Positions 13,871-41,889 are shown, counted from the first letter of the stretch. The stretch: DNA of 64,000 bases from Candidatus Daviesbacteria bacterium (GCA_016184225.1 JACPDA010000004.1:6800-70799); one strand, 5' to 3'. Notes: generated by a model not told the origin, from the sequence alone. Translations and numbers: made by a program.

Positions 13871-15619
13871 CTATTTCTTAAATTGAAGCTTATACATCTC
13901 AACCAACTCTTTAACAGTTGTAGCGTCTTCAGCGTGTTTATCAGAACCACGGAACTTGACCAACCTGGGAAATCTGAGGGCGTAACCGGGCTCTGAGCCC
14001 TTTTTTCCGGCAGTATGAACCGGGCTTCTTGTGATCTCATCTGCCAACACCTCAATCACTATCTTTGGTTCCACCCAAACACTCGGTGTAATGAGCGAGC
14101 TCACTCTGGCTGGTTTACTTTGCACTTTGAACTTTGCACTTTTCACTTTTATCTCCCTCCATTCTTCATCAGTTAAACCGGTGCCGATTTTAGAAACCGT
14201 CACGAATTCGTCTTTTCCCTTATCGTAAACACCCACCAACAAAGAACCAGCTCCGAACCCTGCCCGTTTCCCCCGGCCGAAGATATAGCCTAAAATTACG
14301 CAATCAATTGTGTCTTTGAGCTCTCCTGCCGAGTGTCTTTTTAGCTTGACCCAATTGAAATTTCTGGCTCCTGCCTCATATTTTGAATCAGGCCTTTTAC
14401 AAACAAGCCCTTCCAATCCCTTGGTAATTGCATCATCAAATAATTCAATAATCCGTTTTACTGACTTGGTAAACTCCCCGGGCTGCGCAAGTAAAACCGT
14501 ATCAGGGGTGATGACTTTTTTCAATTTTTCCATCCGGGCTCGGAGGGATAAGTCAATTAAGGATTTCCCATTTAAATACATAATGTCAAACACAAAAGCT
14601 TTTAAAGGTAAGCTTTTTGCCATCTCCTCAATGTTATATTTACGCCGTCTTTTAGTGGTTTCCTGGAAAGGCAAAAATTCCTCTGACTCCGGGTTAAAAG
14701 CTACTGCTTCCGAGTCCAAAATAATGCTGTCTGCTTTAACTTGTTTCAAAATCCCCTGGATAATCTCGGGAAACATGGGTGTAGTTTCCTCTAAATTCCG
14801 GGAAAACAGCCTGACTTTTTGACCTTGTTTGTGTATTTCAATCCTGAAACCATCATATTTATACTGAACATGTGCTTCGCCGCCAAATTTTTCTAAAATG
14901 GTATTGGCATCAGGCAAACGTTCTGCCAGCTGCGACCTGATGGGTCGACCCACTGTCACATCCAAGCTCCGCACTCCCTGAATTCCCTGACTCCATAATG
15001 TTTCCGCAATCACTCCTAAATCAGAAGTTTTATTGTAAGCTTCTTCCAGCTCTTTGCGCCTTTTCCGGTCCCCCAGCTTAGCCAGGGCAAAGCCGTCTAA
15101 CACCGTCGGATCCCCTATTCCCAACCTGGAAACACCCAGAGGAATCCTGACCAGATGTTTTGCCGAAACCGGATCCATCTGCTTTAGCAGACCGGAAAGA
15201 AGTTCCAATTTTTTCTCAACTGTCCCCTTCCCGGCAGTCCCGGCAATCTCTGTCAAAGTCTTAAATACATCTGTAATTGTCATTCTGGCTTGTCCAGAAT
15301 CGATTCTGGATGCGCTTTGCTTACCAGAATGACGTTGTGCCACAACCCCTAAGTCTCCTACCTGTCCATATTCTCTCAACACCTCTTCCCGCTCTACTCC
15401 ATAAGCTCTGGCAATAGATTGAGCCACCAACTTCTCGCTCATACCGATCTCAATCGGTTCATAAAAAGGCGCCACCCGGCCCTGGATTAAATAAACCACT
15501 TTGGCAATTTCCGCAGGTTTAACTTTGGAAAAAAGCTCTGCCAAAATATCAATTAAAGAGAGTCTGGAAGAAGTCTGTTCCAATTTTTCAAAATACTCTG
15601 TAAGTTTAGAAAATTTCAT
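13871..15619 (-). CDS. lig: ATP-dependent DNA ligase (LigI/LigB family)
   Basis: KYDGFRIEIHK (KxDG adenylation motif) and the downstream ligase motifs. The true start is probably MKFSKLTEYF near 15619. The 71-codon 5' extension in the ORF track runs through a MITE-like repeat and is likely not translated. Confidence 0.85.
   Translation of the reverse strand: MKFSKLTEYFEKLEQTSSRLSLIDILAELFSKVKPAEIAKVVYLIQGRVAPFYEPIEIGMSEKLVAQSIARAYGVEREEVLREYGQVGDLGVVAQRHSGKQSASRIDSGQARMTITDVFKTLTEIAGTAGKGTVEKKLELLSGLLKQMDPVSAKHLVRIPLGVSRLGIGDPTVLDGFALAKLGDRKRRKELEEAYNKTSDLGVIAETLWSQGIQGVRSLDVTVGRPIRSQLAERLPDANTILEKFGGEAHVQYKYDGFRIEIHKQGQKVRLFSRNLEETTPMFPEIIQGILKQVKADSIILDSEAVAFNPESEEFLPFQETTKRRRKYNIEEMAKSLPLKAFVFDIMYLNGKSLIDLSLRARMEKLKKVITPDTVLLAQPGEFTKSVKRIIELFDDAITKGLEGLVCKRPDSKYEAGARNFNWVKLKRHSAGELKDTIDCVILGYIFGRGKRAGFGAGSLLVGVYDKGKDEFVTVSKIGTGLTDEEWREIKVKSAKFKVQSKPARVSSLITPSVWVEPKIVIEVLADEITRSPVHTAGKKGSEPGYALRFPRLVKFRGSDKHAEDATTVKELVEMYKLQFKK
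15278..15333. repeat. MITE-like hairpin element (ends TGTCATTCTGG...CCAGAATGAC), in frame inside the ligase gene
   Basis: Terminal inverted repeats with an internal gattctgga block. It encodes RHSGKQSASRIDSGQARMT within the ligase. Confidence 0.75.
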
Positions 15620-15627
15620 TTTGTTTC

Positions 15628-15725
15628 TGTCATTGCGAGGATCCCGTACCGATTCTGGTGCGGGAGACGTAACAATCTTGATTGAGTTAAGATTCTGACG
15701 CTTACTTCGTTCGCTCAGAATGACA
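15628..15725. repeat. MITE-like element, long variant (TGTCATTGCGAGG...CTCAGAATGACA)
   Basis: Same terminal motif family. It lies at the ligase 5' end and upstream of the GGDEF gene. Confidence 0.7.
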
Positions 15726-15772
15726 ATAGTAGGATTGTAATAGATTCCAAAGCTATTGTAAAATACGCATCT

Positions 15773-16618
15773 ATGGTTTATTCTGAAGGTTATATGCTTG
15801 AAACACACGGTGCATCCAAAGAGACTACGCAACAGGAGGATCCTCGGGTAACAGAACTAGCAGCTGAATTACACAGCAGATTGATAGCTGTTTTGCCAAA
15901 TCTGCCCGATGATAACAAAACCTCAGCTGATCTACTCAATTTAGCACACCAATTGGCAAAGGAACAAGTAGCTTTAAAGGAGGAAAATACAAGACTACAA
16001 CAACTGATTGATAGAGATCCTTACAATGATGAAATATATTCTGCTATTGGATGGAATAGGGTTATGAAAGATAAATTGGCGAAGTTAAGAAGAGATAAAC
16101 AAGGCGCAGTACTGATAGCATTCGATCTCGACCATTTTGGGGACTACAATGATATACAGAAGAGCCATATTGAAGGTGATATGGCTCTGGGATTAGCTGG
16201 GCAACTTGCCAAAAGCGTATTAAGGCCAACAGATTTGATAGCTAGACTACATGGAGATGAATTTGAAGTATTGGTAGATACGGATCTCGAAACCGCAATT
16301 CTTATAGCTGAAAGAATGAGGAAAGCTATATCCGGAATGTCTGTTTTACTAAAAACATCCATACCGCTTAGTGCAAGTTTTGGAATCGTAAGATTAGATA
16401 GAAGCATTATAGAAACGCAATATAGATCAGACGAAGAGCGTTCGAATGCCTTGGATCAAGCATATAAATTAGCAGACCATGTTCAATATGTAGGGGCAAA
16501 GGAGGTAGGTAGAAACAGTATTGGCGTTATGTTAGATAGTGGTAAAATTCAAACAGCAATCGTAAATGTAATAGGAGTCGCCGATCCACACCCGACAATT
16601 AGTTACAGGGAGCCTTAA
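15773..16618 (+). CDS. GGDEF-domain protein (diguanylate cyclase-like) with an N-terminal coiled-coil region; the motif is the variant RLHGDEF
   Basis: AFDLDHFGDYND...RLHGDEFEVLV fits the GGDEF domain architecture. The first Gly of the motif is replaced by His. The start codon is uncertain, as the first part overlaps the repeat. Confidence 0.7.
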   Translation: MVYSEGYMLETHGASKETTQQEDPRVTELAAELHSRLIAVLPNLPDDNKTSADLLNLAHQLAKEQVALKEENTRLQQLIDRDPYNDEIYSAIGWNRVMKDKLAKLRRDKQGAVLIAFDLDHFGDYNDIQKSHIEGDMALGLAGQLAKSVLRPTDLIARLHGDEFEVLVDTDLETAILIAERMRKAISGMSVLLKTSIPLSASFGIVRLDRSIIETQYRSDEERSNALDQAYKLADHVQYVGAKEVGRNSIGVMLDSGKIQTAIVNVIGVADPHPTISYREP

Positions 16619-16624
16619 AAGCTA

Positions 16625-17701: not shown

Positions 17702-17761
17702 TTTCGCTAGGGTTTAGGGGTTAGCGACTAGGGTATAGTAGAAAAAAATTTTGCTTTTTGA

Positions 17762-17817
17762 CTATACCCTATACCCTATACCCTATACCCTATACCCTAT
17801 ACCCTATACCCTATCTT
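17762..17817. repeat. tandem heptamer array (CCTATAC) x8
   Basis: Perfect 8-copy array in the spacer between fic and the PaaX-like gene. Confidence 0.9.
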
Positions 17818-17879
17818 CCCACATTTCCCGCAAAAAATCTAATTTGAATCTTGATGTACCAATTGCTTGTACGATCGCA

Positions 17880-18383
17880 TCACGAAATGGTATGACTAGT
17901 CAAACGATTGACTTCCATTACTATCACCCACTTTTCTATCCCCAGATCCTTAATATATGATTCCAGTTTATCAAAAACATTTCTTCTGCTAATCCAGACG
18001 GATTTTTGCAGATGTTTAAAACCCCATTTTTTTAAATTCCTTCTAAAAAGATTTCTGATAATCCGCTTCTCCTCCGGTATATCAAAAATTACTATCCTCC
18101 ATTTCCCATCCCAATTTTTCTCTTCAAACGGATCACTAATTAAATCCCTTCCTGCTTCTGTTAATTTTATAATGACATCATTTTTAAGCTTGACTTGCTC
18201 AATTAAACCACCTTCTCGGAGTCTTCTTAATGCTTGGGATAGTGCAGATTTTTTAAGTTCAGGAATGTCGTAGTGATAGCGGTAATGGTGATAAGTAAAA
18301 TCCTCAAATCTGACATAGCCATCGACTGCTTTTTCCAAAATATGCAAAATCGCATTAGCCAAACTTTTTTTGTAAACCCCCAT
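17880..18383 (-). CDS. PaaX-like regulator (N-terminal wHTH, C-terminal Cas2-fold PaaX_C-like domain)
   Basis: WDGKWRIVIFDIPEEKR...LKKWGFKHLQKSVWIS resembles the PaaX C-terminal domain. The gene is flanked by GTACGATCGCA palindromic motifs. Confidence 0.5.
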   Translation of the reverse strand: MGVYKKSLANAILHILEKAVDGYVRFEDFTYHHYRYHYDIPELKKSALSQALRRLREGGLIEQVKLKNDVIIKLTEAGRDLISDPFEEKNWDGKWRIVIFDIPEEKRIIRNLFRRNLKKWGFKHLQKSVWISRRNVFDKLESYIKDLGIEKWVIVMEVNRLTSHTIS

Positions 18384-18480
18384 ATCAATTTATTGTACGA
18401 TCGCACACTAAATTGTCAATATGCAATTGATTTCGTGGCTGGAATTTTCAGTTGTAATACATGATGGTATACTGGATTGA

Positions 18481-19364: not shown

Positions 19365-22300
19365 TTATTGGGAAACATATTCATCCCAACTCTTGATTTT
19401 TAAATCCTCCATTTTCTTATTAGTTAATGCTGAAATTAAAAGTTCTGCTGCCTGTAAATTAGTTATCAGGGGTATTCCTAAATCAACACAAGTCCTCCTG
19501 ATAATAAACCCATCGGTTTCACCTTTTTTCGAACGGGGTTTGGAAATGTTTATCACTAAATCAATACCGTCTTGTTTTAACAGGTCCAAAACTGACGGGT
19601 GCTTTCTTTCCGAAATTTTAGAGACTCTGGTACTTTGAATATCATTCTTACTTAAAAACTCATGGGTCTGCGGTGTCGCATATATCTTAAAACCTAAGTA
19701 GAATAAATCCCTTGCAGACGAGAGCAAATCCAGTTTATTTTCTTCTCCGCCAATAGTTAATAAAACTGATTTTTGGGGCATCTTAAAACCGGTGGCCAGT
19801 ATGGCTTTAAGATAAGCTTCCTGCAGGTCATCACCAAAACAGGCCACCTCCCCAGTTGAAGACATCTCCACCCGAAGCCTTGGATCAGCTCCCTTAATCC
19901 GGCTAAAGGAAAACTGAGGAGCTTTTACCCCGACATAATCTAAGTCTAAGGTATTAAAGTCTCCCGATATCTTCTCCCCCAGCATCACCTGAGTTGACAT
20001 TTCCACAAAGTTATAGCCGGTTACTTTAGAAACAAACGGGAAAGAGCGGGAAGCGCGCAGGTTTAATTCAATCACCAAAACCTGATTATCTTTGGCTAAA
20101 AACTGGATATTAAAAGGACCGTTTATATTCAATGCCTGGAGAATCTTTCTGGTAGCATCCTTAACTTTTCTCACAGTTTCCAAATACAACCGCTGCGGCG
20201 GCAAAACTATGGTGGCATCCCCGGAGTGCACCCCGGCATTTTCCACATGCTCGGAGATGGCGTAAATTAGAAGCTGGCCATCCTGTCCCACCCCATCCAC
20301 CTCAATCTCTTTGGCTCCTTCCACAAATTTAGAGACAACCACCGGATGCTCTGCCGATATATCGGCTGCGCTTTTTAGCGCTCTTTTCAAATCAGTGCCG
20401 GAATATGCCACGTTCATGGCAGAACCTGATAAAACATACGAGGGCCTGATCAAAACTGGATAGCCTATTTTTCTGGCAAACTTAAGTGCCTCATCAGCAG
20501 TTTTCAAGCTCTGCCAATCCGGCTGCAGAATTCCCAGTTGATCCAGCAGTTTAGAAAACTTATCCCTATCCTCTGCCCGGTCAATGCTTTCCGGGGAAGT
20601 CCCCAGTATTTTATAACCGGCCCGGAAACAGTCCATTGCCAAATTATTGGGAACTTGCCCGCCAAAACCTAAGACAAGTGCTGAGTGCTTAGTGTTTAGT
20701 GTTGAGTTTTTCCAACTTTGCACTTTGAACTTTGCACTTTGCACTTCTATTTCATAGATATCACTCACCCGCTCAAAGGTCAGTTGCTCAAAGTACAACT
20801 TATCTGCCGAGTCGAAGTCAGTAGAAACAGTTTCCGGATTACAATTTATGATAATTGTTTCCAAGCCCCTACTTCTAAGTGTTTGCGCAGCTGTCACCGA
20901 GCACCAGTCAAACTCCACTGAGGAACCAATCCGATAAGGCCCGGAACCCAAGACGATTGCCTTTTGCTTCTTTTTGTCATCCTGGCTTGTCCAGGATCCT
21001 TGCTTTTTTGATTCTGGACGCACTTCGTTTGCCAGAATGACATTCTCTTTCTCCGTTTCATCTCCATGATATGTCAAATATAAATAATTCGTCTTGGCCG
21101 GATATTCTGCTGCCAGGGTATCAATATGTTTGACCTTCGGCACTATGCCATTCTTTTTCCTAAACTCCCTTACTTCTTCCTCCGTTTTTTTAAGCCCTTT
21201 AGCCAATATCTTATCTGAAAACCCCAACTTCTTAGCTTCTCTAACAATTTCTGACTGCAACCTGTTGCCTGTAACCTGTAACCTACCTTCAAACTTCACT
21301 ATTTCCTGAATCTGATACAAAAACCAAGGATCAATGCCGGTTGCCTTATAGACAGCCTCTACAGATTCGCCCTTGCCGAATCTTTTGGCAATCACAAATA
21401 GCCGCTCTGTTGTAGGTAAAAGTTTCGTGTCGTCAATACTGTTTTGCAGTAACCCATCTTGACCTGTTTCCAGCATCCTGATGGCTTTTTGCAGCACTTC
21501 CGGAAAACTTCGTCCGACAGCCATCACCTCTCCCACGCTTTTCATCTCCGAACCAATCGCCTCTTTTGCCCCCACAAATTTTTGCAAATCCCAGCGCGGG
21601 ATCTTAACCACTATATAGTCTAACGCCGGCTCAAAAAATGCCGAAGTTGACAGAGTCACGCTATTTTTTAACTCCGGCAGGTTATAACCTAAGGCAAGTT
21701 TGGCGGCAATGTAGGCCAAGGGGTACCCGGTAGCTTTTGAGGCCAAAGCAGAAGACCGGGACAACCTGGCATTTACTTCAATCACCCGGTAGTCATTATT
21801 TTTAGGATTTAAGGCAAACTGGATATTACATTCACCGACAATCCCTAAATGTTCAATCACCGCAAGAGAGATTCTGCGTAAAAAATGATACTGGTAATTA
21901 TTAAGAGTTTGGGAAGGAGCCACTACAATACTCTCTCCGGTATGGATGCCTAAAGGATCCATATTTTCCATATTACAAACAGTAATTTTGTTGCCTAAAT
22001 TGTCCCGGACTACTTCATACTCAACCTCTTTCCAGTGCTTTAAATACTCTTCTACAGCTATCTGGGGGGCCTGCTTCAAAGCTAAAGTCACCATCTGGAT
22101 AAGCTCTTTTTCATTTTCTATAACTCCGGACCCCAATCCTCCCAAGGAAAAACCGCTTCTTATGAGTAAAGGGTATCCTAACGTTTCTGCAATTTTTAGG
22201 GCCTGATCTAGTGAGCGGGCAAACCCGCCTTTGGGAACCTTAACACCTATCTTGGCCAGCTCCTTAGCAAACAGTTCCCTGTCTTCTGTAATCCGAATAC

Positions 22301-22646
22301 TTTTAACCGGAGACCCTAACACTCTTACTTTCTCACGCTTAAATACCCCTTGATCCTCAAGTGCCAGGCCACAATTTAGGGCTGTTTGTCCTCCAAAGCT
22401 TAAAAAAATTCCATCCGGCTTTTCCTTCTCAATTACTTTTTGGACAAAATATGGAGTCACCGGTAAAAAATAAATCTTTTTGGCCAAACCTTCCGAGGTT
22501 TGAATGGTGGCGATATTAGGATTTATTAAAACCGCCTCAATACCTTCTTCTTTCAAAGCTTTCAACGCTTGTGAGCCGGAATAATCAAACTCTCCAGCTT
22601 CACCGATTTTTAATGCTCCTGAACCCAAAACTAGGACCTTTTTCAT
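19365..22646 (-). CDS. carB: carbamoyl-phosphate synthase large subunit, carrying three in-frame repeat insertions
   Basis: Duplicated ATP-grasp halves and an MGS-like C-terminus. The insertions ESKKQGSWTSQDDKKKQKA (MITE-like), QSAKFKVQSWKNS (heptamer repeats) and LQVTGNRLQ (GTTACAG repeats) sit in linker regions. Confidence 0.93.
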   Translation of the reverse strand: MKKVLVLGSGALKIGEAGEFDYSGSQALKALKEEGIEAVLINPNIATIQTSEGLAKKIYFLPVTPYFVQKVIEKEKPDGIFLSFGGQTALNCGLALEDQGVFKREKVRVLGSPVKSIRITEDRELFAKELAKIGVKVPKGGFARSLDQALKIAETLGYPLLIRSGFSLGGLGSGVIENEKELIQMVTLALKQAPQIAVEEYLKHWKEVEYEVVRDNLGNKITVCNMENMDPLGIHTGESIVVAPSQTLNNYQYHFLRRISLAVIEHLGIVGECNIQFALNPKNNDYRVIEVNARLSRSSALASKATGYPLAYIAAKLALGYNLPELKNSVTLSTSAFFEPALDYIVVKIPRWDLQKFVGAKEAIGSEMKSVGEVMAVGRSFPEVLQKAIRMLETGQDGLLQNSIDDTKLLPTTERLFVIAKRFGKGESVEAVYKATGIDPWFLYQIQEIVKFEGRLQVTGNRLQSEIVREAKKLGFSDKILAKGLKKTEEEVREFRKKNGIVPKVKHIDTLAAEYPAKTNYLYLTYHGDETEKENVILANEVRPESKKQGSWTSQDDKKKQKAIVLGSGPYRIGSSVEFDWCSVTAAQTLRSRGLETIIINCNPETVSTDFDSADKLYFEQLTFERVSDIYEIEVQSAKFKVQSWKNSTLNTKHSALVLGFGGQVPNNLAMDCFRAGYKILGTSPESIDRAEDRDKFSKLLDQLGILQPDWQSLKTADEALKFARKIGYPVLIRPSYVLSGSAMNVAYSGTDLKRALKSAADISAEHPVVVSKFVEGAKEIEVDGVGQDGQLLIYAISEHVENAGVHSGDATIVLPPQRLYLETVRKVKDATRKILQALNINGPFNIQFLAKDNQVLVIELNLRASRSFPFVSKVTGYNFVEMSTQVMLGEKISGDFNTLDLDYVGVKAPQFSFSRIKGADPRLRVEMSSTGEVACFGDDLQEAYLKAILATGFKMPQKSVLLTIGGEENKLDLLSSARDLFYLGFKIYATPQTHEFLSKNDIQSTRVSKISERKHPSVLDLLKQDGIDLVINISKPRSKKGETDGFIIRRTCVDLGIPLITNLQAAELLISALTNKKMEDLKIKSWDEYVSQ
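20975..21042. repeat. MITE-like element (GTCATCCTGG...CCAGAATGACA), in frame in the carB inter-domain linker
   Basis: Same TIR family as 15278, 24801, 33999 and 40945. Confidence 0.75.
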
Positions 22647-22726: not shown

Positions 22727-23845
22727 TTATATTAAATCCAAAAATTCATCAAATAAATAACCGCCCTCTGTCGGACCCGGGTTGGCTTCCGGGTGAAATT
22801 GTACTGCTATAAAAGACTTTTTATTGTGCCTAATCCCCTCATTTGTGCCGTCATTTAAATTAACAAACCACTCTAGCCACTCTTTTCCTAAAGATTTCAT
22901 ATCCACCGCGAAACCATGATTTTGACTGGTTATGATAGCTTTCTTGTTATTTTGATCTAGTACAGGCTGATTTTGGCTTCTATGACCGAACTTTAGTTTG
23001 TAAGTTTCTCCTCCAGCTGCCAAAGATAAAATCTGGCTGCCTAAACAAATACCAAAAGTGGGGACACCTGCATCAAGCAACTGCTTAACAGTTTCTATAG
23101 TGGCTTTAGCCTGTTTTGGATCTCCCGGGCCGTTGGAAATTAGAACTCCGTCAAATCCGCCAGCTGGCGGACTAGCTATCGGATTAAAATCCCAGGGCAC
23201 CCTGGTTACCCTGACTCCTCTTTTAACTAAACTCCTGATAATATTTTCCTTGGCTCCGCAATCAATTAAGACTATATTTTTCTTGTTCATCCTGAGCGAA
23301 GTCGAAGGACCATACACCTCCACCTTTTTACAACTAACATAAGGCAAGATATTCTCTTTATTCGGATCATAAATAGAGTCGCTAGTCGCTAGAGTCGAGA
23401 GTCTAGACTGTTGATTCCTAGACTCTAGATTCTTGACTCTAGACTCTACTTCTATTCGACCAAGCATCACTCCATGCTTCCGAAGCTTAGTAGTCAACTC
23501 CCTGGTATCAATCCCCTGCAAAGCAGGTATCCCTTCATCTTTCAGCCACTCCCCCAAAGTTTTCTGGCTTTCAAAATGTGACGGGTGGTCAATATAGTTT
23601 TGCACAATTAACCCCTTAACCTGAATTTTTTTTGATTCCCAAAACTTTTTTCCCGGCACCCCGTAATTTCCCTGCAAGGGATAAGTCAAAACTAGGATTT
23701 GGCCAAAATAAGATGGGTCTGTCAAGGATTCCGGGTATCCCACCATACCGGTATTAAAAACCACCTCGCCTGAGGTAGCTACCTCTTTCCCAAAGCTTTC
23801 TCCTAAAAAAACTGTCCCATCGGACAGAATCAGTCTCCCTTGCAT
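22727..23845 (-). CDS. carA: carbamoyl-phosphate synthase small subunit (glutamine amidotransferase)
   Basis: Class I GATase triad region (GICLGSQ...HPE). It contains an in-frame PPAGG palindrome and the SRLSTLATS repeat module. Confidence 0.9.
   Translation of the reverse strand: MQGRLILSDGTVFLGESFGKEVATSGEVVFNTGMVGYPESLTDPSYFGQILVLTYPLQGNYGVPGKKFWESKKIQVKGLIVQNYIDHPSHFESQKTLGEWLKDEGIPALQGIDTRELTTKLRKHGVMLGRIEVESRVKNLESRNQQSRLSTLATSDSIYDPNKENILPYVSCKKVEVYGPSTSLRMNKKNIVLIDCGAKENIIRSLVKRGVRVTRVPWDFNPIASPPAGGFDGVLISNGPGDPKQAKATIETVKQLLDAGVPTFGICLGSQILSLAAGGETYKLKFGHRSQNQPVLDQNNKKAIITSQNHGFAVDMKSLGKEWLEWFVNLNDGTNEGIRHNKKSFIAVQFHPEANPGPTEGGYLFDEFLDLI
23381..23460. repeat. 80-bp repeat module (gtcgctagtcgctagagtcgagagtctagac...) shared with the fpg gene at 29805-29885
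   Basis: Near-identical blocks encode ...SRLSTLATS... in frame in both CarA and Fpg. Confidence 0.8.
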
Positions 23846-23860: not shown

Positions 23861-24799
23861 TTATCGAGAATTAATTCTTCCTAAGACTAAAGCCAACAAC
23901 GCTTCTCTAATATATAAACCATTCCTGGCTTGAGCAAAATAAATGGCATTTTTATGACTATCTAGCGCCGGATCAATCTCATTTACTCTAGGCAAAGGAT
24001 GCATCAATTTTATTCCCCGATCCAGGTACTTCTTAAAAGAAGAGTCTAAAATAAATTTATCTTTAATCCTTTCGTATTCCTTTAAATCTTTAAATCTCTC
24101 TTTCTGCACTCTGGTTTGGTAAAGAAAGTTTGCCTCTAAGTTTTCCGGCAAACGTTCATATTCTTCATAAGTCACTTTCCTGCTTTTTAAAATCTTTAAA
24201 AATTCATCAGGCATCGCAAGATTAGGGTGTGAAATAAAAATCTGTTTAACTCTAAAAAGGCTTAAAGCAAGAGAAAGCGCATGAACGGTTCTGCCATATT
24301 TTAAATCCCCCATCAAGGCTACTGTAATCCCATCTAACTTCCCGGCCTCCTTCATCATCGTATAAAGATCAAGCATTGTTTGAGTTGGATGCTGATTAGG
24401 CCCGTCTCCTGCGTTTATAACCGGAATTTGGGCAACTTCTGCTGCCTTTTTTGCTGATAAAGCCTCCGGGTGCCTCATAATTAAAACATCAGCATATGAG
24501 TCCATAATTCTGATAGTATCTGAAAAAGTTTCACCTTTGTGAATGGAGGTGGCCTCCGGATCATTAAAACCAATTATCCCCATGCCTATTTTTTGGGCTG
24601 CAGAACGGAAGGATTGTTCTGTCCGAGTAGAAGGTTCAAAAAAAAGCAAAGCAACAATTTTACCTTGGGCAATAGTGTAATTTGACCTGTCGCTTTTAAC
24701 AAAAGCCGGATCAAATCTTTTAGCAGTTTTTAAGATATATAGCAGCTCTTCTTTGGAAAAATCATTTATGTCTATAATATCTCTGCCTTTAAATTTCAT
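23861..24799 (-). CDS. pyrB: aspartate carbamoyltransferase catalytic subunit
   Basis: STRTR and HPTQ motifs. Confidence 0.9.
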   Translation of the reverse strand: MKFKGRDIIDINDFSKEELLYILKTAKRFDPAFVKSDRSNYTIAQGKIVALLFFEPSTRTEQSFRSAAQKIGMGIIGFNDPEATSIHKGETFSDTIRIMDSYADVLIMRHPEALSAKKAAEVAQIPVINAGDGPNQHPTQTMLDLYTMMKEAGKLDGITVALMGDLKYGRTVHALSLALSLFRVKQIFISHPNLAMPDEFLKILKSRKVTYEEYERLPENLEANFLYQTRVQKERFKDLKEYERIKDKFILDSSFKKYLDRGIKLMHPLPRVNEIDPALDSHKNAIYFAQARNGLYIREALLALVLGRINSR

Positions 24800-24800: not shown

Positions 24801-24824
24801 TGTCATTCTGGCTTGTCCAGAATC
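24801..24824. repeat. MITE-like half element (TGTCATTCTGGCTTGTCCAGAATC) immediately upstream of pyrB
   Basis: Same terminal motif as the other family members; here it is a short palindromic core only. Confidence 0.7.
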
Positions 24825-29313: not shown

Positions 29314-30293
29314 AGGTAGGTGCCGCGGCCGCCGAGTGAGATTTTTTTAATCTCTGTCCCGCAAACTTTACAAGGGTGTTTATCGCGCCAGTAGACAAAG
29401 GCATAATCTAAAAAATAACCTTTGTGTCCTTCCGCATCTACAAAATGTGCCCTGGTTGAACCTCCGTGCTTTATTCCTTCCCTTAAAGCCCTGACTACCC
29501 CACGGTGTAGAGCTTGGAATTTCCTATCAGTCAATGTAACCACTTTAGTCCGAGGATCTATTCCAGCCATAAAACAGGCCTCATTAGAGTAGATATTTCC
29601 CACTCCTGATACCACGCTTTGGTCCATAATAGCCACCTTAACTGGCATTTTCTTATGTTTCAATAAATTCTGCTTAAGAACCTGCCATGTAAACCCTTTT
29701 TCTAAGGGCTCCGGTCCAAGATTCTTGATTGAACTGTCCACTGTAACCTGTTGCCTGTCCACTACCTTCACCCATCCAAACTTCCTCTGGTCATTAAAAT
29801 ATAAGTGGCTAGTCGCTAGAGTCGAGAGTCTAGACTTTTCATATTTTTTTCCTAGACTCTTACCACTTGACTCTAGACTCTGAAGTGTAAATATCACCCT
29901 GGTATGAGAGTTTGGCATCTTACCTAACATATCCTCAGTCGGATGTCCGCCAATAAATTTATTGTCACCTGTCGCCTGTTGCCTACCGCCTTCCCATATC
30001 AGTTGGCCTGACATCTTCATATGAAAAAGAAGAGTTATCAGGTTAGAGGTTACAGGTTTCAGTTTTGAAACTTTTTTAACTGTCCCCTGTCCACTGTACC
30101 CTGTACCCTCTGCGAGGTCTATACCGAGCAGCTTCGCTCTTCTCCAAACTTTGAGTACTTTTTGTCCCTGGGCCAAATTAGGGTTTCCAATAAAAGATTT
30201 AGGAGATAAAATCTGGATCTTTTGGATCTTCAGTCCAATAATTTTATTTTGTAGACCCAGTCTAATGACCTCAACTTCGGGAAGTTCTGGCAT
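29286..30293 (-). CDS. mutM: formamidopyrimidine-DNA glycosylase (Fpg/MutM) with repeat-derived in-frame insertions
   Basis: N-terminal MPELPEVE and a C-terminal zinc finger C..C...CPHCQ. The protein is about 335 aa versus about 270 canonical; the extra segments are encoded by GTTACAG repeats and the SRLSTLATS module. Confidence 0.85.
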   Translation of the reverse strand: MPELPEVEVIRLGLQNKIIGLKIQKIQILSPKSFIGNPNLAQGQKVLKVWRRAKLLGIDLAEGTGYSGQGTVKKVSKLKPVTSNLITLLFHMKMSGQLIWEGGRQQATGDNKFIGGHPTEDMLGKMPNSHTRVIFTLQSLESSGKSLGKKYEKSRLSTLATSHLYFNDQRKFGWVKVVDRQQVTVDSSIKNLGPEPLEKGFTWQVLKQNLLKHKKMPVKVAIMDQSVVSGVGNIYSNEACFMAGIDPRTKVVTLTDRKFQALHRGVVRALREGIKHGGSTRAHFVDAEGHKGYFLDYAFVYWRDKHPCKVCGTEIKKISLGGRGTYLCPHCQKAV

Positions 30294-30866: not shown

Positions 30867-31718
30867 TTAAATTAATTTAACTAACCTGCCGCTTCTTAAG
30901 GATTTCTTAAACACCAGAGTGAAAAAGATCAGCGAGGCAACCATATAAATTATGTTCAATAAAACCGCTGTCCAGAAGGAACCATAATCAAACTGGCCAA
31001 ACTTTAAAGTATATCTCATACCCTCAAATACATGGGAAATAGGCAAGAAAAAAGCGATCTTTTGAAATATGGGTGGCAAGACAGAGATCGGATAAAAAAC
31101 AGCGGCAAAGGGTTGGACAAAAAACGGCAAAATCCAAGTTAAGGGTCCGATTGAATGGCCATATTTTAAAATTAAGGAAATATTAAAAATGCCGAAAGAG
31201 ATGGCAAAGATAAATAAATTTATCCAAAGCAGGGCCAAACCAAACCCCAGGCTGGTAATTTGAAAATTATAAAAAATCCCGGCCATCAGCCACATAGAAG
31301 TTAAGGCAATCATGATTTTAATAAAACTAATTGTTAAAAGCCCTGTTAAAAATTCTAAAAATGTAATTGGTGAAGCCAAAAGGTTGATAATATTGCGGTC
31401 CCAAATTTCAAACATAAAATTTACCCCGATATCAGTACTGACTTTTTCAAAAATCACCCACAAAATCATCCCCCCAAGCAAAAATGATGCTAGCTGGGAA
31501 GACTGGATATTTTGCACATATTTTGACAAAAATCCCCACAGAATTAAAACCAACACCGGAGAAATAATCACATCAAAAAACCTCTCCAGCTGATGCATGG
31601 TGGTAAAAATATGCCTTAAGACTATCGCAAAGATTCTGTTAAGATTCATATTTACTCCTTGATAGGTGGATGAATACATCCCTAAGGTTTGGCTCATCCC
31701 CTTCCAGCTTAAGCACAC
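30867..31718 (-). CDS. ABC-2 type transporter permease
   Basis: Six TM helices; lies downstream of the ABC ATPase. The real start is probably an internal Met. Confidence 0.7.
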   Translation of the reverse strand: MCLSWKGMSQTLGMYSSTYQGVNMNLNRIFAIVLRHIFTTMHQLERFFDVIISPVLVLILWGFLSKYVQNIQSSQLASFLLGGMILWVIFEKVSTDIGVNFMFEIWDRNIINLLASPITFLEFLTGLLTISFIKIMIALTSMWLMAGIFYNFQITSLGFGLALLWINLFIFAISFGIFNISLILKYGHSIGPLTWILPFFVQPFAAVFYPISVLPPIFQKIAFFLPISHVFEGMRYTLKFGQFDYGSFWTAVLLNIIYMVASLIFFTLVFKKSLRSGRLVKLI

Positions 31719-32424
31719 TCTGAGTCAACTCAAGCGGGGTACCGGAAGCCACAATTTTTCCGTGGTTTAAGAAAATCACATTATTGGCAATCTCTTCTAT
31801 TTCCCACATGTTGTGGGAAGTATAAAGAATGGTAATTTTTTCCTCTTTTTGGATTTGTTTGAGCAAATTAATCCCTTTATCCACCACATCAGGATCCATG
31901 GAAACCATCGGCTCATCTAAAAGCAGTAGTCTTGGTTTATTAAGCAAGGCCTTACACAGGTTAGCCCTAGCCCGTAGCCCTGTTGATAAATCCCGGGTAG
32001 CAGTGTTGCGGAAATCAATCATTTCAAAAAGCTGGAGCAGTTCCGTGATTCTTTTTTTGGCCTCCGGCACTTCATAAAGCTTGGCATAAACCAATAAGTT
32101 CTCCCAAATAGTTAAATTCCAAGGCAAATTAAAATCAGCCGAAGCATAATTTACTTCTTTAAAAATTTCACTCCTGTCTTTGGAAATATCCTTGCCAAAA
32201 ATACGGATATTACCCTCATCCGGAACAATCAAACCTAAAATGCAATAAATAGTGGTAGATTTGCCTGCCCCATTTGGTCCTAAAAATCCCAAAATCTCCC
32301 CTTCTTTCAAAGAAAAAGAAATATTATCAATAGCAGTAAATCCGCCGGCTGGCGGACCAAAGTTTTTCCTTAAATTTTTCACTTCCAAAATCACCCTTTT
32401 ATCCATAATTTTCCCTTCTGTCAT
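31639..32424 (-). CDS. ABC transporter ATP-binding protein
   Basis: Walker A GPNGAGKST, ABC signature and Walker B LLLLDEP. It contains an in-frame PPAGG. Confidence 0.88.
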   Translation of the reverse strand: MTEGKIMDKRVILEVKNLRKNFGPPAGGFTAIDNISFSLKEGEILGFLGPNGAGKSTTIYCILGLIVPDEGNIRIFGKDISKDRSEIFKEVNYASADFNLPWNLTIWENLLVYAKLYEVPEAKKRITELLQLFEMIDFRNTATRDLSTGLRARANLCKALLNKPRLLLLDEPMVSMDPDVVDKGINLLKQIQKEEKITILYTSHNMWEIEEIANNVIFLNHGKIVASGTPLELTQSVLKLEGDEPNLRDVFIHLSRSKYES

Positions 32425-32503
32425 TGCGAGCGATTAGCGTGGCAATCTAATTAAGGATTTACCCACCCAAGATTGCTTCGTCACTACGTTCCTCGCAATG
32501 ACA
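32419..32503. repeat. MITE-like element, long hairpin variant (TGTCATTGCGAG...CTCGCAATGACA)
   Basis: 11-bp terminal inverted repeats enclosing about 60 nt; intergenic. Confidence 0.7.
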
Positions 32504-32592
32504 ATTGTATTGTATTTATTGTAGTTTAGATTGAGGCTAATTACCAGAGATCAAGCAGGTTTTGCGGAACGGGTTACAACCCTGAGCGAGCG

Positions 32593-33589: not shown

Positions 33590-33673
33590 TGTCATTCCGA
33601 GGAGCGAAGCGACGTGGGAATCTTTATTTTTTAATCAAGATTGCCACAGCCACTTCGTGGCTTCGCAATGACA
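33590..33673. repeat. MITE-like element, long hairpin variant (TGTCATTCCGAGGAGCGAAGC...GCTTCGCAATGACA)
   Basis: Same terminal family; intergenic between fba and glpX. Confidence 0.7.
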
Positions 33674-33674: not shown

Positions 33675-34730
33675 TTAACGGTGTAACCGTTTTTCTATCT
33701 TGGCACCTCTTTTAGATACTGTCAAGGTTGTCACTTCATGTCCGCCGTCTTTTTCTACTACTCCGGATAAATCAAACCATTTATTATCACCGGTTATGGC
33801 AGAAATGGAGACCGAGCAATCCTCCTTTTTACCGGAAACCAACTCATCTATTTTCCAAGCCTTTTTGTATTTTTGGGCAATTTCCGTATCAGGCGACCAA
33901 CCCCTACCTTCCCCTACCGCCCCCAAAGCTTTGGCTGCCACTGCCGCGAGTACCCCCTCTTCAAATCCTCCAATCCCCATCACCAGATGTATTCCTTTTG
34001 TCATTCTGGCACCGACTCTGTCGAGTGTCCTCGATTCCATCGGGACTTGTCCAGAATCTTTTTTAGGATCCATACAAGATAAGATAGACGGCAGAAAGTC
34101 TCCGGCGGGAATCTTAATGAGATTAACCCCGAATTTTTGGCAGGCATTAATCAAATGGCTATTCCTGTCCCGATCCATCATCACCACATTAATCTCAGCA
34201 GGTTTGACTCTAAATATATCCACCACTTCTGCTAAATTTTCCTCTACTCTCTTATCAATGGAAATCTTACCTAGTAGCTCGGGTGGGCCAAATAATTTAT
34301 CCATATAATCTATATCCGGCGGAGTTGGCATCAAGCCTTTGTGGGAACCTACTGCGATCACAGAAACAGCCCCGGGAGAATTTAACTTGGCAGCTTTACT
34401 GCCTTCCACCACATCGTTAACCATGTCCAATTTCAAGTCACTTCCGCCAGCTGGCGAACCAAAAGTTCCCTCCAAAGTTGGCAGCGCTTCCCCGTATTGA
34501 TGGATATGTTTTCTGCCCTCAGAGCCAACTACTTCCAAAACAAACGGGATATCGGTTAAAGCAGCATACATAGCATCCACCCCGGCCTGGTCAATCAATT
34601 TCTCCCGGGCCTTGGATTCTTCTTCTGTCAAAAGATCTTGCGGGCTAAAGCCTTTTTCCTGAATTAGCCTCCAAACTGATAAAGCAGTTAGCTCGGTGGC
34701 ACGAATAATATAATCTCTAACTTTAGGCAT
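33675..34730 (-). CDS. glpX: fructose-1,6-bisphosphatase class II (GlpX-like)
   Basis: Alignable by eye to GlpX (VIAVGSHKG, IPAGDF..ILSCM, MGIGGFEEGVLAAVAAKALGA). It contains an in-frame PPAGG-type palindrome and a MITE-like insertion. Confidence 0.75.
   Translation of the reverse strand: MPKVRDYIIRATELTALSVWRLIQEKGFSPQDLLTEEESKAREKLIDQAGVDAMYAALTDIPFVLEVVGSEGRKHIHQYGEALPTLEGTFGSPAGGSDLKLDMVNDVVEGSKAAKLNSPGAVSVIAVGSHKGLMPTPPDIDYMDKLFGPPELLGKISIDKRVEENLAEVVDIFRVKPAEINVVMMDRDRNSHLINACQKFGVNLIKIPAGDFLPSILSCMDPKKDSGQVPMESRTLDRVGARMTKGIHLVMGIGGFEEGVLAAVAAKALGAVGEGRGWSPDTEIAQKYKKAWKIDELVSGKKEDCSVSISAITGDNKWFDLSGVVEKDGGHEVTTLTVSKRGAKIEKRLHR
33999..34058. repeat. MITE-like element, in frame in glpX
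   Basis: TGTCATTCTGGCACCGACTCTGTCGAGTGTCC...GGACTTGTCCAGAATC encodes ...DPKKDSGQVPMESRTLDRVGARMT... Confidence 0.7.
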
Positions 34731-37703: not shown

Positions 37704-37940
37704 CTATTGCCAGTTGAAGACAGGAACTTCAAGAATCTGTCTGGGTTTTTGATCTTTAGAAGTCTTTTTAACTAAATTATCAAGCCTCTTTGAAACTTCA
37801 GCTGAATAATATCTCTCACCACATTGAGTACATACTTCAACCGGCACATTTTTGACAACATATAACTTATCGCCCCACCTAAAGTCGACATCGATATTTT
37901 TTATTCTGGTAGCTCCTTTACAAAAATAGCATTTATTCAC
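37704..37940 (-). CDS. YgiT/MqsA-type zinc-finger antitoxin-like protein
   Basis: CYFC...CTQCGE zinc ribbon (TIGR03831-like), about 78 aa. It overlaps the upstream DUF4258-like gene. Confidence 0.65.
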   Translation of the reverse strand: MNKCYFCKGATRIKNIDVDFRWGDKLYVVKNVPVEVCTQCGERYYSAEVSKRLDNLVKKTSKDQKPRQILEVPVFNWQ

Positions 37941-38241: not shown

Positions 38242-38252
38242 CTACATCTAGT

Positions 38253-38328
38253 TTAGCATTATTGGAAAGAACAGGATTTATTAGGTTTGAGGTCGAACAA
38301 AGACCGGTTAAGAAACTGGTGGTTTAGA
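38253..38328. repeat. direct repeat B (duplicate of the 37625-37700 segment)
   Basis: See repeat A. Confidence 0.8.
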
Positions 38329-39641: not shown

Positions 39642-39675
39642 ATTGCTGGCATTTTATCATCCTATAGGCCATATG

Positions 39676-41889
39676 TCAAGGATTTAATAGTTTCATTTCT
39701 CCCCAGTTCTTACCAACTTTGAGGTCAACTATGACAGGCACTGAAAGTTTGAGAGCATTTTCCATTTTTTCTTTCACCATTTTCCCCACTTCGCGAACGC
39801 TTCGCGGGGTGCATTCAAACAAAAGCTCATCATGAACCTGGAGAATAAGTGAACAGTGCTGAGTGCTAAGTGCTAAGTCCTTTTTCCCACTTTGCACTTT
39901 TCCCTTTGCACTTAACACTTTCCCAATCTCCACCATGGCCTTTTTAATCATATCAGCCGCCGTGCCTTGGACCGGATGGTTGACTGCAGCTCGCTCCCCG
40001 GCTGCCCTGATCATCCGATTCCCCACTTTTAACTCCGGAATATACCTTTTCCTGCCCCAAATGGTCTCCACAAAACCGTTCTCATAGCCAAATGCCAAAG
40101 TATCTTCCGTCCATTTCCTGACTTTGGGAAATTCGGCAAAATACTCATCAATATACTGGCGGGCCAACTCATATGGCACTTCCAGTTGGCGGGAGAGCGC
40201 ATGCGGCCCCTGGCCATAAAGGGTGGCAAAATTCATGGTTTTACCCACCATCCGCTGCTCTCTTGTCACCTTTTCCAAAGAGACATTAAAGATTTTTGAA
40301 GCAGTTAAGGCATGAATATCTACTCCTTCCTTAAAAGCTTTTTTCAAACCCGGGTCATCTGCCAAATGGGCCATAATCCGCAGTTCAATCTGTGAGTAAT
40401 CAGCTGTTAGCAACACCTTACCTTTGGGGGCCACAAATGCTTTCCGAATTTCTCCTCCGGCCTCGCCTTTAATGGGAATATTTTGTAAATTAGGGTCTTT
40501 GGAAGAAAGCCTGCCGGTAGCAGCCCCTTCTACATTAAAAGTGGAATGGATCCTACCGGTGCTATCTACAAATTTAGGCAGGGCATCAATATAGGTGGAA
40601 ACCAGCTTAAATAATTGCCGGTATTCCAGCATCAGTGGCACTGCCGGATGGGTTAGCGCTAACTCACGCAGGGTGGCTTCATCAGTGGAACGGCCGGTTT
40701 TGGTTTTTCTCACCACCGGCAGCTTTAGCTCATCAAACAGCACTTCTGACAACTGCTTTGGGCTGTTCAGATTGAACTGATGTCCTACTTTTGAGTAAAT
40801 CTCCTTTTCAATCTTGGCTAATCTGGCTTTTAGCTGTTTGCCAAACCTGCTTAAAAACTTCAGGTCAATTAATACCCCGGCCTCTGACATTCTTTTAAGA
40901 ACAGGCTCTACCTGATGATCCAAATCTGCTGTTTGCTGGTTTTGTGTCATTCTGGCTTGTCCAGAATCCTCTTCTTTAGATTCTGGAGTCCTCACTGCGT
41001 TCGTCCCCAGAATGACATTTTGGGAACCGGAAACCCTGGCTATCAAACTTTTGAATTCGAGTTCTTCAAACAACTTAACCACTTTTTCTTTATCAAAATC
41101 GTGCACTATACATTCTTTCAAATTAAGCTTAATTGGTGCTTTTAAATCCAAAGTAGCCAGTCTTTTGCTCATCACGGCAGATTCTGCCCCCTCGGAAAGC
41201 AGTGTTTGCATCCTCTCCGGCAAGGTTTTCAGATTTTCAGATTTGTAAATATTTTCAACTGAACCAAACTGGTGAATCAATTTAGTGGCTGTGACATCAC
41301 CAATTCCCGGCACCCCGGGAATATTATCCGAGGCATCCCCGGAGAGCCCTTTATAATCAGTTAATTGTTTTGGGAAAAAGCCATATTTGGCCACAAACTC
41401 CTCCAGTCCATATAATCCTACATCTGCCAGGGTTTTTTTGGGCATAAACACCTTAACTTTCTTATCAATCAGCTGCATGATATCCCGATCCCCGGTCACA
41501 ATAATAGTTTCCAAATCCGTTTCTTTCTCTGTTTGCTTTGCCAAGGTTCCGATTAAATCATCTGCCTCATAACCTGCCAGCTTAAACTCCGGAATATTAA
41601 AAGCTTTAGTTATCTCATGCACCCTTTTGTATTGACCGGATAAACCCTCATCAGTGGCAGTCCGGGTGGCTTTATACTGGGTATAAGCTTGATGCCGGAA
41701 AGTCGGACCCTTTTCATCCCAGGCAATAGCCAAATACCGCGGGTGCAGCTCCGAAATCACCCTTAAAACCATGGAGGAAAAGCCGTATACGGCATTGACC
41801 AACTCACCCGAGGAGGTAGTAAAAGGCGGTGTGGCATGATAGGCTCGGTGCAACAGGGCATTCCCATCCACTAATACTAAACGTTTCAT
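39676..41889 (-). CDS. polA: DNA polymerase I (5'-3' exonuclease plus polymerase domains; short, 737 aa)
   Basis: 5' nuclease motifs at the N-terminus and polymerase motifs A, B and C at the C-terminus. A MITE-like element and a heptamer-repeat block are inserted in frame in the inter-domain region. Confidence 0.9.
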   Translation of the reverse strand: MKRLVLVDGNALLHRAYHATPPFTTSSGELVNAVYGFSSMVLRVISELHPRYLAIAWDEKGPTFRHQAYTQYKATRTATDEGLSGQYKRVHEITKAFNIPEFKLAGYEADDLIGTLAKQTEKETDLETIIVTGDRDIMQLIDKKVKVFMPKKTLADVGLYGLEEFVAKYGFFPKQLTDYKGLSGDASDNIPGVPGIGDVTATKLIHQFGSVENIYKSENLKTLPERMQTLLSEGAESAVMSKRLATLDLKAPIKLNLKECIVHDFDKEKVVKLFEELEFKSLIARVSGSQNVILGTNAVRTPESKEEDSGQARMTQNQQTADLDHQVEPVLKRMSEAGVLIDLKFLSRFGKQLKARLAKIEKEIYSKVGHQFNLNSPKQLSEVLFDELKLPVVRKTKTGRSTDEATLRELALTHPAVPLMLEYRQLFKLVSTYIDALPKFVDSTGRIHSTFNVEGAATGRLSSKDPNLQNIPIKGEAGGEIRKAFVAPKGKVLLTADYSQIELRIMAHLADDPGLKKAFKEGVDIHALTASKIFNVSLEKVTREQRMVGKTMNFATLYGQGPHALSRQLEVPYELARQYIDEYFAEFPKVRKWTEDTLAFGYENGFVETIWGRKRYIPELKVGNRMIRAAGERAAVNHPVQGTAADMIKKAMVEIGKVLSAKGKVQSGKKDLALSTQHCSLILQVHDELLFECTPRSVREVGKMVKEKMENALKLSVPVIVDLKVGKNWGEMKLLNP
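40945..41017. repeat. MITE-like element, in frame in the polA linker
   Basis: TGTCATTCTGGCTTGTCCAGAATC...CCCCAGAATGACA encodes ...TPESKEEDSGQARMTQNQQ... Confidence 0.75.

Follow-up and report, generated by a model that had tools for sequence, protein, structure and literature searches.

The DNA studied here, a 64,000-nt stretch from a Candidatus Daviesbacteria bacterium (GCA_016184225.1 JACPDA010000004.1:6800-70799; hereafter 'the window', with positions counted from its first letter), carries a set of short hairpin repeats located both in spacers and within the reading frames of conserved genes. Candidatus Daviesbacteria belongs to the Microgenomates group of the Patescibacteria, or candidate phyla radiation (CPR). 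In total the window holds 17 repeat units, 15 of them retrieved by a structure-aware scan and 2 degenerate, which form 10 elements, i.e. seven inverted doublets and three single units. An earlier note on this DNA had described miniature hairpin elements of a single family, all with the same inverted ends; this description holds, and an element is present at each of the eight sites for which coordinates had been listed. The copy tally had nevertheless missed a single unit at 12125-12171, and the supposed degenerate half-sites in the pflB-pflA spacer, where repeat sequence does occur, are actually a full doublet at 4369-4440.

Each unit opens with Y-GTC, continues with a stem whose first letters are ATT or ATC, a loop and the complementary stem (last letters AAT or GAT), and closes with a C (in short form, YGTC-ATTC..stem-loop-stem..GAAT-C), as exemplified by TGTC-ATTCTGG-CTTGT-CCAGAAT-C. 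A doublet is made up of one unit followed, after 0 to 23 nt, by an inverted unit, the doublets of the window measuring 57-98 nt. YGTC precedes the stem in 17/17 window units, and in a set of 619 units drawn from all loci, 77% have T and 17% have C at position -1. The stems found in the window are ATTCTGG/CCAGAAT, ATTGC/GCAAT, ATTCC/GGAAT and ATCCTGAA/TTCAGGAT, and the loops are 5-41 nt long, with nested hairpins in some. By the scan rule, a C directly follows the palindrome in 15 of the 17 units; the left unit of doublet B, which failed the rule on stem length alone, also ends in ...CAATC, the exception being found in the pfl doublet, whose degenerate left unit ends in GGGGGAGC. The repeats are far more frequent than in shuffled DNA: nine matches to TGTCATTCTGG with one mismatch or none were counted versus 1.1 expected (0/100 shuffles attain 9), and the structure-aware scan, which asks for GTCAT[TC], an unbroken stem of 5 bp or more that begins at the AT, and a closing xAT-C, returned its 15 units versus a mean of 0.98 and a maximum of 3 in block shuffles. 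An identical 24-nt sequence, TGTCATTCTGGCTTGTCCAGAATC, recurs in four unrelated genes and spacers. As single-stranded DNA (ssDNA) the doublets fold better than shuffles (z -3.1 to -6.1). In doublets F and B the two halves have unlike stems, yet each half is self-complementary (in F, ATTCC/GGAAT versus ATTGC/GCAAT), so that the hairpin of each half, and not only end-to-end pairing, is the conserved feature, a conclusion that also draws on the shuffles and on published mutagenesis. Searching the window against Rfam at gathering thresholds returned tRNAs only. As to orientation, the solo units and the short-loop (CTTGT) halves all read GTCAT... on the + strand. This strand is rich in C, as seen in a negative GC skew across most of the window, and nearly all genes are on the - strand; the pattern may reflect a replication-related bias, the cases being too few for a test.

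Among the elements located in spacers, the pfl doublet (4369-4440) belongs to a subfamily with ATCC stems and lies between pflB and pflA with the layout CGTCATCCTGAA-CTTG-ATTCAGGATC, 19 nt, CTCCCCCG-ATTAAAT-CGGGGGATGACA, its DNA fold being -16.2 kcal/mol (z -4.9). Doublet B (15628-15725) is a hybrid, with an ATTG..CAAT stem and a nested hairpin on the left and an ATTCTGA/TCAGAAT stem on the right, located between the ligase gene and a divergent open reading frame (ORF) at 15773-16618 whose orthologues show a GGDEF domain. Single unit D (24801-24824, + strand), TGTCATTCTGG-CTTGT-CCAGAATC, is found 1 nt upstream of the start codon of the ORF at 23861-24799, for which orthologues carry OTCase-type Pfam domains. 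Doublet E (32419-32503), of GCGAG type, separates an aldolase gene from an ABC-ATPase gene (fold z -5.8), and doublet F (33590-33673), with ATTCC/GGAAT on its left and ATTGC/GCAAT on its right, separates glpX from the aldolase gene (fold z -6.0). The terminal ATGACA of E (32419-32424) supplies an in-frame ATG for the ORF at 31639-32424, six codons upstream of the start of the orthologues; starting there would give MTEGKI + MDKRVILEVKN, and the insert also brings a GAAGGGA stretch shortly before the original ATG. A GC hairpin, TCCGCCAGCTGGCGGA (also CCGCCAATGGGCGG followed by T8), recurs after genes at 23150, 24835, 25301, 32335 and 34437 and looks like a shared terminator; unit D sits wedged between one such hairpin and the next start codon.

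Five elements are located in frame within genes, and the frame is open in all five. The earlier note had counted four, in genes that Pfam identifies as an ATP-dependent DNA ligase, carB, glpX and polA, the fifth being in a PHP/MJ0043_C-like gene. This last gene (11553-12896, - strand, 447 aa; Pfam PF27218 on orthologues) hosts the single unit at 12125-12171 (+ strand, GCGAG type), whose loop holds a second small hairpin (CCCTGAGCTTGTCGAAGGG) and which adds a 14-residue insert, ..IATLRQAQGKLPRND.., to the protein. Doublet A (15278-15334, - strand, CTGG type, fold z -6.05), in which the two units abut, adds RHSGKQSASRIDSGQARMT to the ligase (13871-15619, - strand, 582 aa), a protein 100% identical to NCBI entry P0121. 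In carB (19365-22646, - strand, 1093 aa), doublet C (20975-21042, - strand, CTGG/CCTGG type) adds VILANEVRPESKKQGSWTSQDD between the oligomerisation domain and the second pre-ATP-grasp domain. Single unit G (33999-34058, + strand), with a CTGG stem and a structured loop of 41 nt, adds DSGQVPMESRTLDRVGARMT to the glpX-type fructose-1,6-bisphosphatase (FBPase; 33675-34730, - strand, 351 aa). Doublet H (40945-41017, - strand, CTGG type) adds VILGTNAVRTPESKEEDSGQARMT to polA (39676-41889, - strand, 737 aa), which encodes a 5'-3' exonuclease and a polymerase domain. An example of the junction peptides predicted for such in-frame inserts is ..SRIDSGQARMTITDVF.., and the reading frame at the left end of the same DNA differs between genes, which gives RHSG in the ligase and VILG in polA.

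The inserts had been placed in inter-domain linkers, with 20-25 added residues each. Those of polA and carB do lie between Pfam domains; the ligase insert is found within the N-terminal domain, between two of its helices, and the length added is about 14-24 residues. In an AlphaFold (AF2) model of the ligase built from 50 sequences, the insert forms a low-confidence loop, with a predicted local distance difference test score (pLDDT) below 50 at residues 102-110 versus about 84 in the neighbouring blocks. A further proposal, that the polA copy occupies the place of a 3'-5' exonuclease domain, is contradicted by the orthologues: none of 120 has this domain (0/120), and those free of the insert are only 696 aa long. 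The polA of this lineage thus does without the 3'-5' exonuclease, and H sits in the short linker between 5'-3' exonuclease and polymerase rather than in place of a lost domain. That the surviving copies are either intergenic or translatable agrees with all intragenic copies keeping the frame open. Two polA orthologues from Daviesbacteria-like bacteria, P0023 and P0047, are 1153-1164 aa long and contain intein and LAGLIDADG Pfam domains, so the polA of this group also hosts inteins.

Relatives were compared by syntenic DNA, at about 75-84% nucleotide identity, using L001 (GCA_964489875.1), L002 and L209 (GCA_030648525.1), L003 and L210 (a 1.02-Mb contig from the Joint Genome Institute, JGI) and L004 (GCA_900217965.1). 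Empty sites were found in close relatives for seven elements (G, F, E, D, the pfl doublet, the 12125 unit and C). That is, G is missing from L001 and L209, which show an 18-codon gap; F is missing from the same two, in which glpX and the aldolase gene abut or overlap, as is E; D is missing from L003 and L004; the pfl doublet is missing from L002 and L004, where pflB and pflA abut; and the 12125 unit is missing from the L002, L003 and L004 orthologues. At the carB site of C, L004 has nothing and L002 has an element of another subfamily (VIPANAGIQ...LDPRLCGDD). H is shared with L001, the two copies being identical at 71/73 nt versus 84% for the whole of polA, and A is identical at 54/57 nt to a copy in L050 with far more diverged flanks. 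Structure-aware scanning of the syntenic DNA gave 0 units in about 22 kb of L003, 0 in L004, and 9 in L002, mostly at other sites. No consistent target-site duplication emerged from the comparisons of filled and empty sites, with vague similarities only around E and the pfl doublet.

For the ligase and polA sites, 120 orthologues of each protein were aligned and neighbour-joining trees were built with the insertion site masked. Among these orthologues both sites are found with no insert, with the same insert, or with inserts of other subfamilies, which encode peptides such as VIPANAGIQ..RLRGDD, VIAS.AKQS..PRND, VILNASEGSQDLKSRDSS..QND and HCEES..LLAMT. The minimum number of state changes under Fitch parsimony is 25 for the ligase site and 19 for the polA site. 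Judging from these alignments, the two sites appear to be insertion hot spots, and resident hairpins may draw in new copies, as nested copies in G, the 12125 unit and L118 might suggest. The comparison with relatives also decides the alternative that the segments are ancient, fast-evolving linkers alike by composition only. The inserts do lie in loops and linkers of variable length among orthologues, but the empty sites are clean, the identical 24 nt recur in unrelated contexts, one and the same peptide comes from a different reading frame depending on the gene, and a given site may hold different subfamilies or nothing. The probability left to this explanation, which the empty sites and the identical DNA already refute, is negligible, and the view of the earlier note that these are insertions stands.

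The distribution of the repeat was assessed by scanning one genome per species (596 Gb) for TGTCATTCTGG-N3-30-CCAGAATC, which gave at least 120 stretches. About 120 matches would be expected by chance over 596 Gb, with evenly spread loop lengths; loops of 5-6 nt account for 86/135 of the matches listed, the loop CTTGT alone occurring 41 times, and most of the matches listed then have an inverted partner unit, often with another stem, e.g. GGATTCCCGACAAGCGGGAATGACA. The hosts among the matches listed include many Patescibacteria lineages, Nitrospirota, Thermodesulfovibrionia and Chloroflexota, and further Alpha-, Beta- and Gammaproteobacteria, Bacteroidota, Ignavibacteriales, Peptococcaceae, Myxococcota and others. 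In a metagenome-assembled genome of Ignavibacteriales, positions 3081-5500 of L048 (~2.4 kb) are densely packed with about 15 hairpin units, and no ORF there reaches 80 aa.

All-against-all clustering of the ORFs of at least 100 aa from the repeat-selected loci, together with the Pfam assignment of its members, identified the recurrent small protein of these loci as a stand-alone GIY-YIG nuclease of ~90 aa (PF01541, E-values 1e-11 to 1e-17, on four proteins of 92-125 aa); a search for end pairs 350-4000 nt apart was too noisy owing to the dense repeats. The GIY-YIG gene is present in 9/120 of the repeat-selected loci among the matches listed, and in 6 it lies exactly between two inverted units, as in L074, with the layout GTCATTCTGGCTTGGCCAGAATC-7 nt-ATG...TAG-ATTCTGGCCAAGCCAGAATGACA. 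The converse test was independent of the repeat: 80 metagenome loci were fetched by the protein alone, 73 of them with full flanks. In these 73 loci a forward hairpin is found upstream of the gene in 57, an inverted hairpin downstream in 56, and both in 47, versus 3, 8 and 1, respectively, for 226 control placements with the same geometry elsewhere in the same loci. The flanking stems differ from locus to locus (CTGG, CCGG, CCCGC, GCGAG, CTGAG and others), which means that types near the main subfamilies of the window (CTGG, GCGAG, CTGA) exist elsewhere as gene-carrying elements.

These observations bear on two alternatives, the first of which assigns the repeats to the repetitive extragenic palindromic (REP) type, i.e. 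inverted palindromic doublets (REPINs) spread by a domesticated Y1 HUH transposase, the REP-associated tyrosine transposase (RAYT). Their organisation would fit, with single units and inverted doublets, hairpins, no duplications and one resident flanked enzyme gene; inverted doublets, the lack of duplications, a resident flanked enzyme gene and the recognition of hairpins in ssDNA form are features shared with REP/REPIN-RAYT systems (Nunvar 2010; Bertels and Rainey 2011, PMC3116915) and with IS200/IS605. Here, though, the flanked gene encodes a GIY-YIG protein (PF01541) and not Y1_Tnp; unlike a Y1 HUH transposase, the GIY-YIG nuclease forms no covalent intermediate and hence cannot rejoin DNA alone; the ORF clusters of the 120 listed repeat-selected loci gave no transposase-linked recurrent family (Pfam was run on the GIY-YIG cluster only, and the genomes were given no whole-genome RAYT scan); and the unit matches the recognition motif published for the nuclease SsnA, described below. 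We consider this explanation very improbable.

The second alternative is a classical MITE (miniature inverted-repeat transposable element), that is, a deletion derivative of an insertion sequence (IS) with a DDE transposase, mobilised in trans via TGT...ACA terminal inverted repeats. In its favour, the repeats are small and numerous and have terminal inverted repeats of 11-12 nt with TG..CA at the ends, and the earlier note had called the repeats MITE-like, which is apt insofar as they appear as gene-less derivatives of a gene-carrying element with which they share their ends. The target-site duplication of a classical MITE is, however, not seen consistently at the empty sites, the conserved feature is the hairpin of each half and not the pairing of the ends (the halves of F and of B being unlike), single units occur alone, and the sole recurrent gene between the ends encodes a 90-aa GIY-YIG nuclease, an enzyme not known to transpose DNA and not a recognised transposase. 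A classical MITE is as poor a candidate as the REP type, and very unlikely.

The match to a known motif is much closer. Chenal et al. (2025, Nat Commun 16:2388; PMC11893778) defined the Neisseria Transformation Sequence (NTS), CGTCATTCCCGCGMAVGCGGGAATCYRG, which starts with CGTCATTCCC and contains the old dRS3 repeat ATTCCC-N8-GGGAAT, and generalised it to Ssn-related motifs (SRM) that flank ssnA in many phyla. SsnA is a 94-aa single-domain GIY-YIG protein (CDD cd10448) which binds the hairpin as ssDNA only and cuts a few nt upstream; for binding the key base is the C just past the palindrome, and for cutting the key is the three nt before it, while the loop can be changed or extended (PMC11893778). 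The units of the window resemble SRM/NTS in precisely these respects, with an invariant GTC and C, i.e. the parts that SsnA needs, and a free loop (5-41 nt here), the part in which it tolerates change, and likewise in having a ~90-aa single-domain GIY-YIG partner between inverted units and a wide distribution across phyla. In one locus, L160, the flanks of the nuclease gene match the published NTS consensus base for base. The window units differ in that their stems are of other subfamilies (CTGG, GCGAG, CCGAG, ATCC) and in that the window has mostly gene-less inverted doublets, with empty sites and five in-frame copies in conserved genes. This match with the SRM/SsnA family means that the repeats are not a new kind of element, although the earlier note had not known them as described for this lineage; in-frame palindromes are likewise known, from the Rickettsia palindromic elements (RPEs; PMC10969869).

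A candidate for the resident partner was found with a nuclease profile search. This protein, P0302, is 91 aa long, contains PF01541 and is named GIY-YIG nuclease family protein of Candidatus Daviesbacteria bacterium; P0302 and P0121, the entry identical to the ligase of the window, are each on record for a 769,731-bp contig, and P0302 is very probably encoded in the same genome as the window. Four Daviesbacteria loci, L205-L208, encode a protein identical to P0302 and show the layout unit-ssnA-inverted unit with units of the same subfamily. In L205 the left end is CGTCATTCTGG-TAAGTGAGTGAAACGAATGCAC-CCAGAATC, a CTGG unit with a long loop, followed by 23 nt and ssnA, and the right end, 4 nt past the ssnA stop, is GATTCTGG-ACAAG-CCAGAATGACA, a unit with a CTTGT loop. 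Read on the gene strand, doublet A is CGTCATTCTGG-TAAGCAAAGCGCAT-CCAGAATC directly followed by GATTCTGG-ACAAG-CCAGAATGACA, and thus corresponds to both ends of the L205 ssnA element, in the same order and with nothing between them; the strand given for A is that of the long-loop unit, i.e. the orientation of the missing ssnA. C and H have an A-like layout with 10-11 nt between the units. On this comparison of sequences, the simplest reading is that the doublets would be internal-deletion derivatives of the resident ssnA element.

The ssnA architecture is not present within the window itself. One GIY-YIG ORF of the window (61605-61847, + strand, 80 aa) was considered as a partner and rejected: it is 38% identical to a GIY-YIG protein of L055 and has no flanking units, and we take its motifs (..GGRYTRSHKP..) to resemble the YhbQ/UPF0213 type. 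NCBIfam has no specific model for the nuclease, and a PDB sequence search with it gave no match. As to the surroundings of gene-carrying copies, a full ssnA element lies just upstream of an ORF starting MLDIKFIR.., presumably serS, in L080 (labelled Curtissbacteria) and in L119, L126, L127 and L131 (metagenome or differently binned contigs). In Daviesbacteria L205-L208 the element lies between a 132-aa ORF and a bPH_2 gene. These differing neighbours mean that the gene-carrying copy occupies different loci in different lineages.

Altogether, we regard it as quite probable that the repeats of the window are members of the SRM (dRS3/NTS) family that were recently inserted, the doublets being the ends of an ssnA element minus the gene and the intragenic survivors being those that are translatable. 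The data directly show the anatomy and hairpin potential of the units, their excess over chance, their recent insertion, an expansion confined to some lineages and the connection with ssnA, while the oriented, ssDNA-specific cleavage next to the hairpin is taken from PMC11893778. The mechanism would be as follows. The hairpin of the oriented unit, in ssDNA, would be the signal for SsnA binding and cleavage; the gene-carrying form would be [unit]-ssnA-[inverted unit], from which the doublets would derive as both ends with the gene deleted, and the singles as lone ends. The copies arrived at the sites where they now lie only recently, within this Daviesbacteria lineage. By analogy with IS200/IS605 and REP/RAYT, SsnA might mobilise the units while they are single-stranded, as happens at replication forks and in DNA uptake or repair. 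SsnA would make the cuts, and the joining would presumably fall to the host, because a GIY-YIG nuclease only cuts. Selection would then remove intragenic copies that are out of frame, bear a stop or disrupt the fold, and those surviving would have a net length that is a multiple of three, no stop and a position in a loop or linker, thereby adding 14-24 residues.

Several points weigh against this interpretation. Movement of DNA by SsnA was seen in no experiment or sequence here, and GIY-YIG enzymes cut and do not join. The resident ssnA is flanked by CTGG units, whereas the GCGAG, CCGAG and ATCC subfamilies, likewise present, yielded no nuclease of their own. P0302 is tied to the genome of the window by the equal figure of 769,731 bp and the organism name, that contig being unread. 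There is no clear target-site duplication and no definable insertion-site rule, the insertion flanks showing just a weakly G-poor, pyrimidine-rich 5' side and possible microhomology to the element ends. Moreover, the hot spots could be explained by selection for permissive loops rather than by targeting, and translation of the inserts is presumed from the open frames.

Some of the data could also be read as indicating that the hairpins serve the host, being kept because cleavage by SsnA at them controls ssDNA uptake or recombination, a role proposed for Neisseria, or as terminators or mRNA stabilisers, with copies arising by recombination or repair. SsnA/NTS indeed modulates transformation in Neisseria (PMC11893778), orthologous copies exceed their flanks in conservation (H in 71/73 nt versus 84% for polA; A in 54/57 nt versus L050), and D, E, F and the pfl doublet are located exactly at gene boundaries. 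This would, however, leave unexplained why identical units appear at new sites that share no homology, among them positions well inside five conserved genes, and the syntenic regions of close relatives do without units. As a full explanation it is unlikely, if somewhat less so than a classical MITE or a REP-type origin; a host role may have been acquired later, which would be compatible with recent insertion of SRM units.

In-frame insertion of palindromes has precedents. RPEs (Ogata et al. 2000; reviewed in PMC10969869) resemble the present elements in that they are palindromic repeats of a small genome, placed in frame where the protein fold allows it in metabolic and housekeeping genes that are not related to one another, and differ in measuring about 100-150 bp. 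A 2024 review of prokaryotic MITEs gives as in-frame cases Rickettsia RPEs, Coxiella QMITE1 and Anabaena MITEs, with no mention of CPR. Six insert peptides searched against NCBIfam gave no match at E<=10, a comparison at the peptide level with a library whose inclusion of RPE models is unconfirmed. Some genomes carry hundreds of SRM, and Rickettsia is listed among those with more than 300 (PMC11893778), a lead according to which some RPEs may be related to SRM. The window elements also consist, like the Neisserial intergenic mosaic elements (NIMEs), of short segments between two inverted dRS3-type hairpins; NIMEs form intergenic arrays, whereas those of the window stand alone as doublets whose units are 0-23 nt apart, some of them within genes. 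NIMEs, which Parkhill and colleagues reportedly described in 2000, are said to be repeat units bounded by dRS3 inverted repeats.

In PMC11893778 the likeness of NTS-ssnA-NTS to an IS was raised as a hypothesis only, and its mobility and the role of the system outside Neisseria were left open. The present locus provides comparative evidence on both, namely filled and empty sites among relatives of about 80% identity and zero to many units in the same syntenic DNA, as well as gene-less doublets that match the ends of a probable resident gene-carrying copy. It presents the SRM family at work in a CPR bacterium with a genome below 1 Mb, where it has changed the encoded amino acid sequences of DNA polymerase I, DNA ligase, carbamoyl-phosphate synthase and FBPase. 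Peptides of CPR proteins such as ..DSGQARMT.., ..VIPANAGIQ.. and ..PRND.. should accordingly be recognised as repeat-derived, and the few loops that accept many independent insertions are marked as permissive sites. More tentatively, and with somewhat less than even confidence, we propose that the SsnA element is a genuine and currently active class of prokaryotic mobile DNA with a single gene, that of the 90-aa GIY-YIG ssDNA nuclease, and that its gene-less, MITE-like doublets repeatedly insert into, and replace one another in, surface loops of conserved proteins in the small CPR genomes; it would then be a significant source of lineage-specific insertions and might share its mechanism with RPEs.

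The text of PMC11893778 mentions neither Patescibacteria nor MITE and uses the word coding twice, in neither case on insertions in genes. A limited search of the literature found nothing on SRM in CPR/Patescibacteria or on in-frame insertion of SRM, and published text containing the repeat strings GTCATTGCGAG and GGGAATGACA consisted of unrelated primer matches only. Within that limited search, no description was found of the presence and expansion of the family in CPR, gene-less doublets matching a probable resident ssnA element, comparative evidence of insertion, five in-frame copies in core genes, or loops reoccupied by different subfamilies.

The window contains other repeats as well. Tandem heptamers are found at 9831-9954, 14117-14161, 17708-17813, 20664-20759, 21262-21299, 23377-23447, 29734-29874 and 39842-39926; their sequences (ACTTTGC, AGTGCTA, CTATACC, CTGTAAC, AGTCGCT/AGACTCT) occur in spacers and in frame in carB, carA, polA and the ligase gene, where they encode peptides such as SAKFKVQS. 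A scattered subset of ligase orthologues has KVKSAKFKVQS in place of HKRADKIKVDH at unchanged length, so that in the alignment the heptamers seem to have overwritten the sequence and not to have been inserted. Another short repeat, CCCTGAGCG-N-GTCGAAGGG, is located at 23289-23312, 51490-51513, 53274-53297 and about 32555-32590, and is nested in the 12125-12171 unit. It resembles the variant GTCACCCTGAG..GAAGGGTCTC that flanks GIY-YIG genes in L181 and L182, the window copies being without GTC, and may be a degenerate or separate SRM subfamily. Furthermore, a 38-nt palindrome, ACCAATT..GT(A/G)CGATCGCA..AATTGGT, which could be an operator-like site, has three intergenic copies (17858-17895, 18384-18421 and 42325-42362), and a 262-nt direct repeat is present at 1423-1684 and 5383-5644, the two copies being 3960 nt apart and 91% identical.

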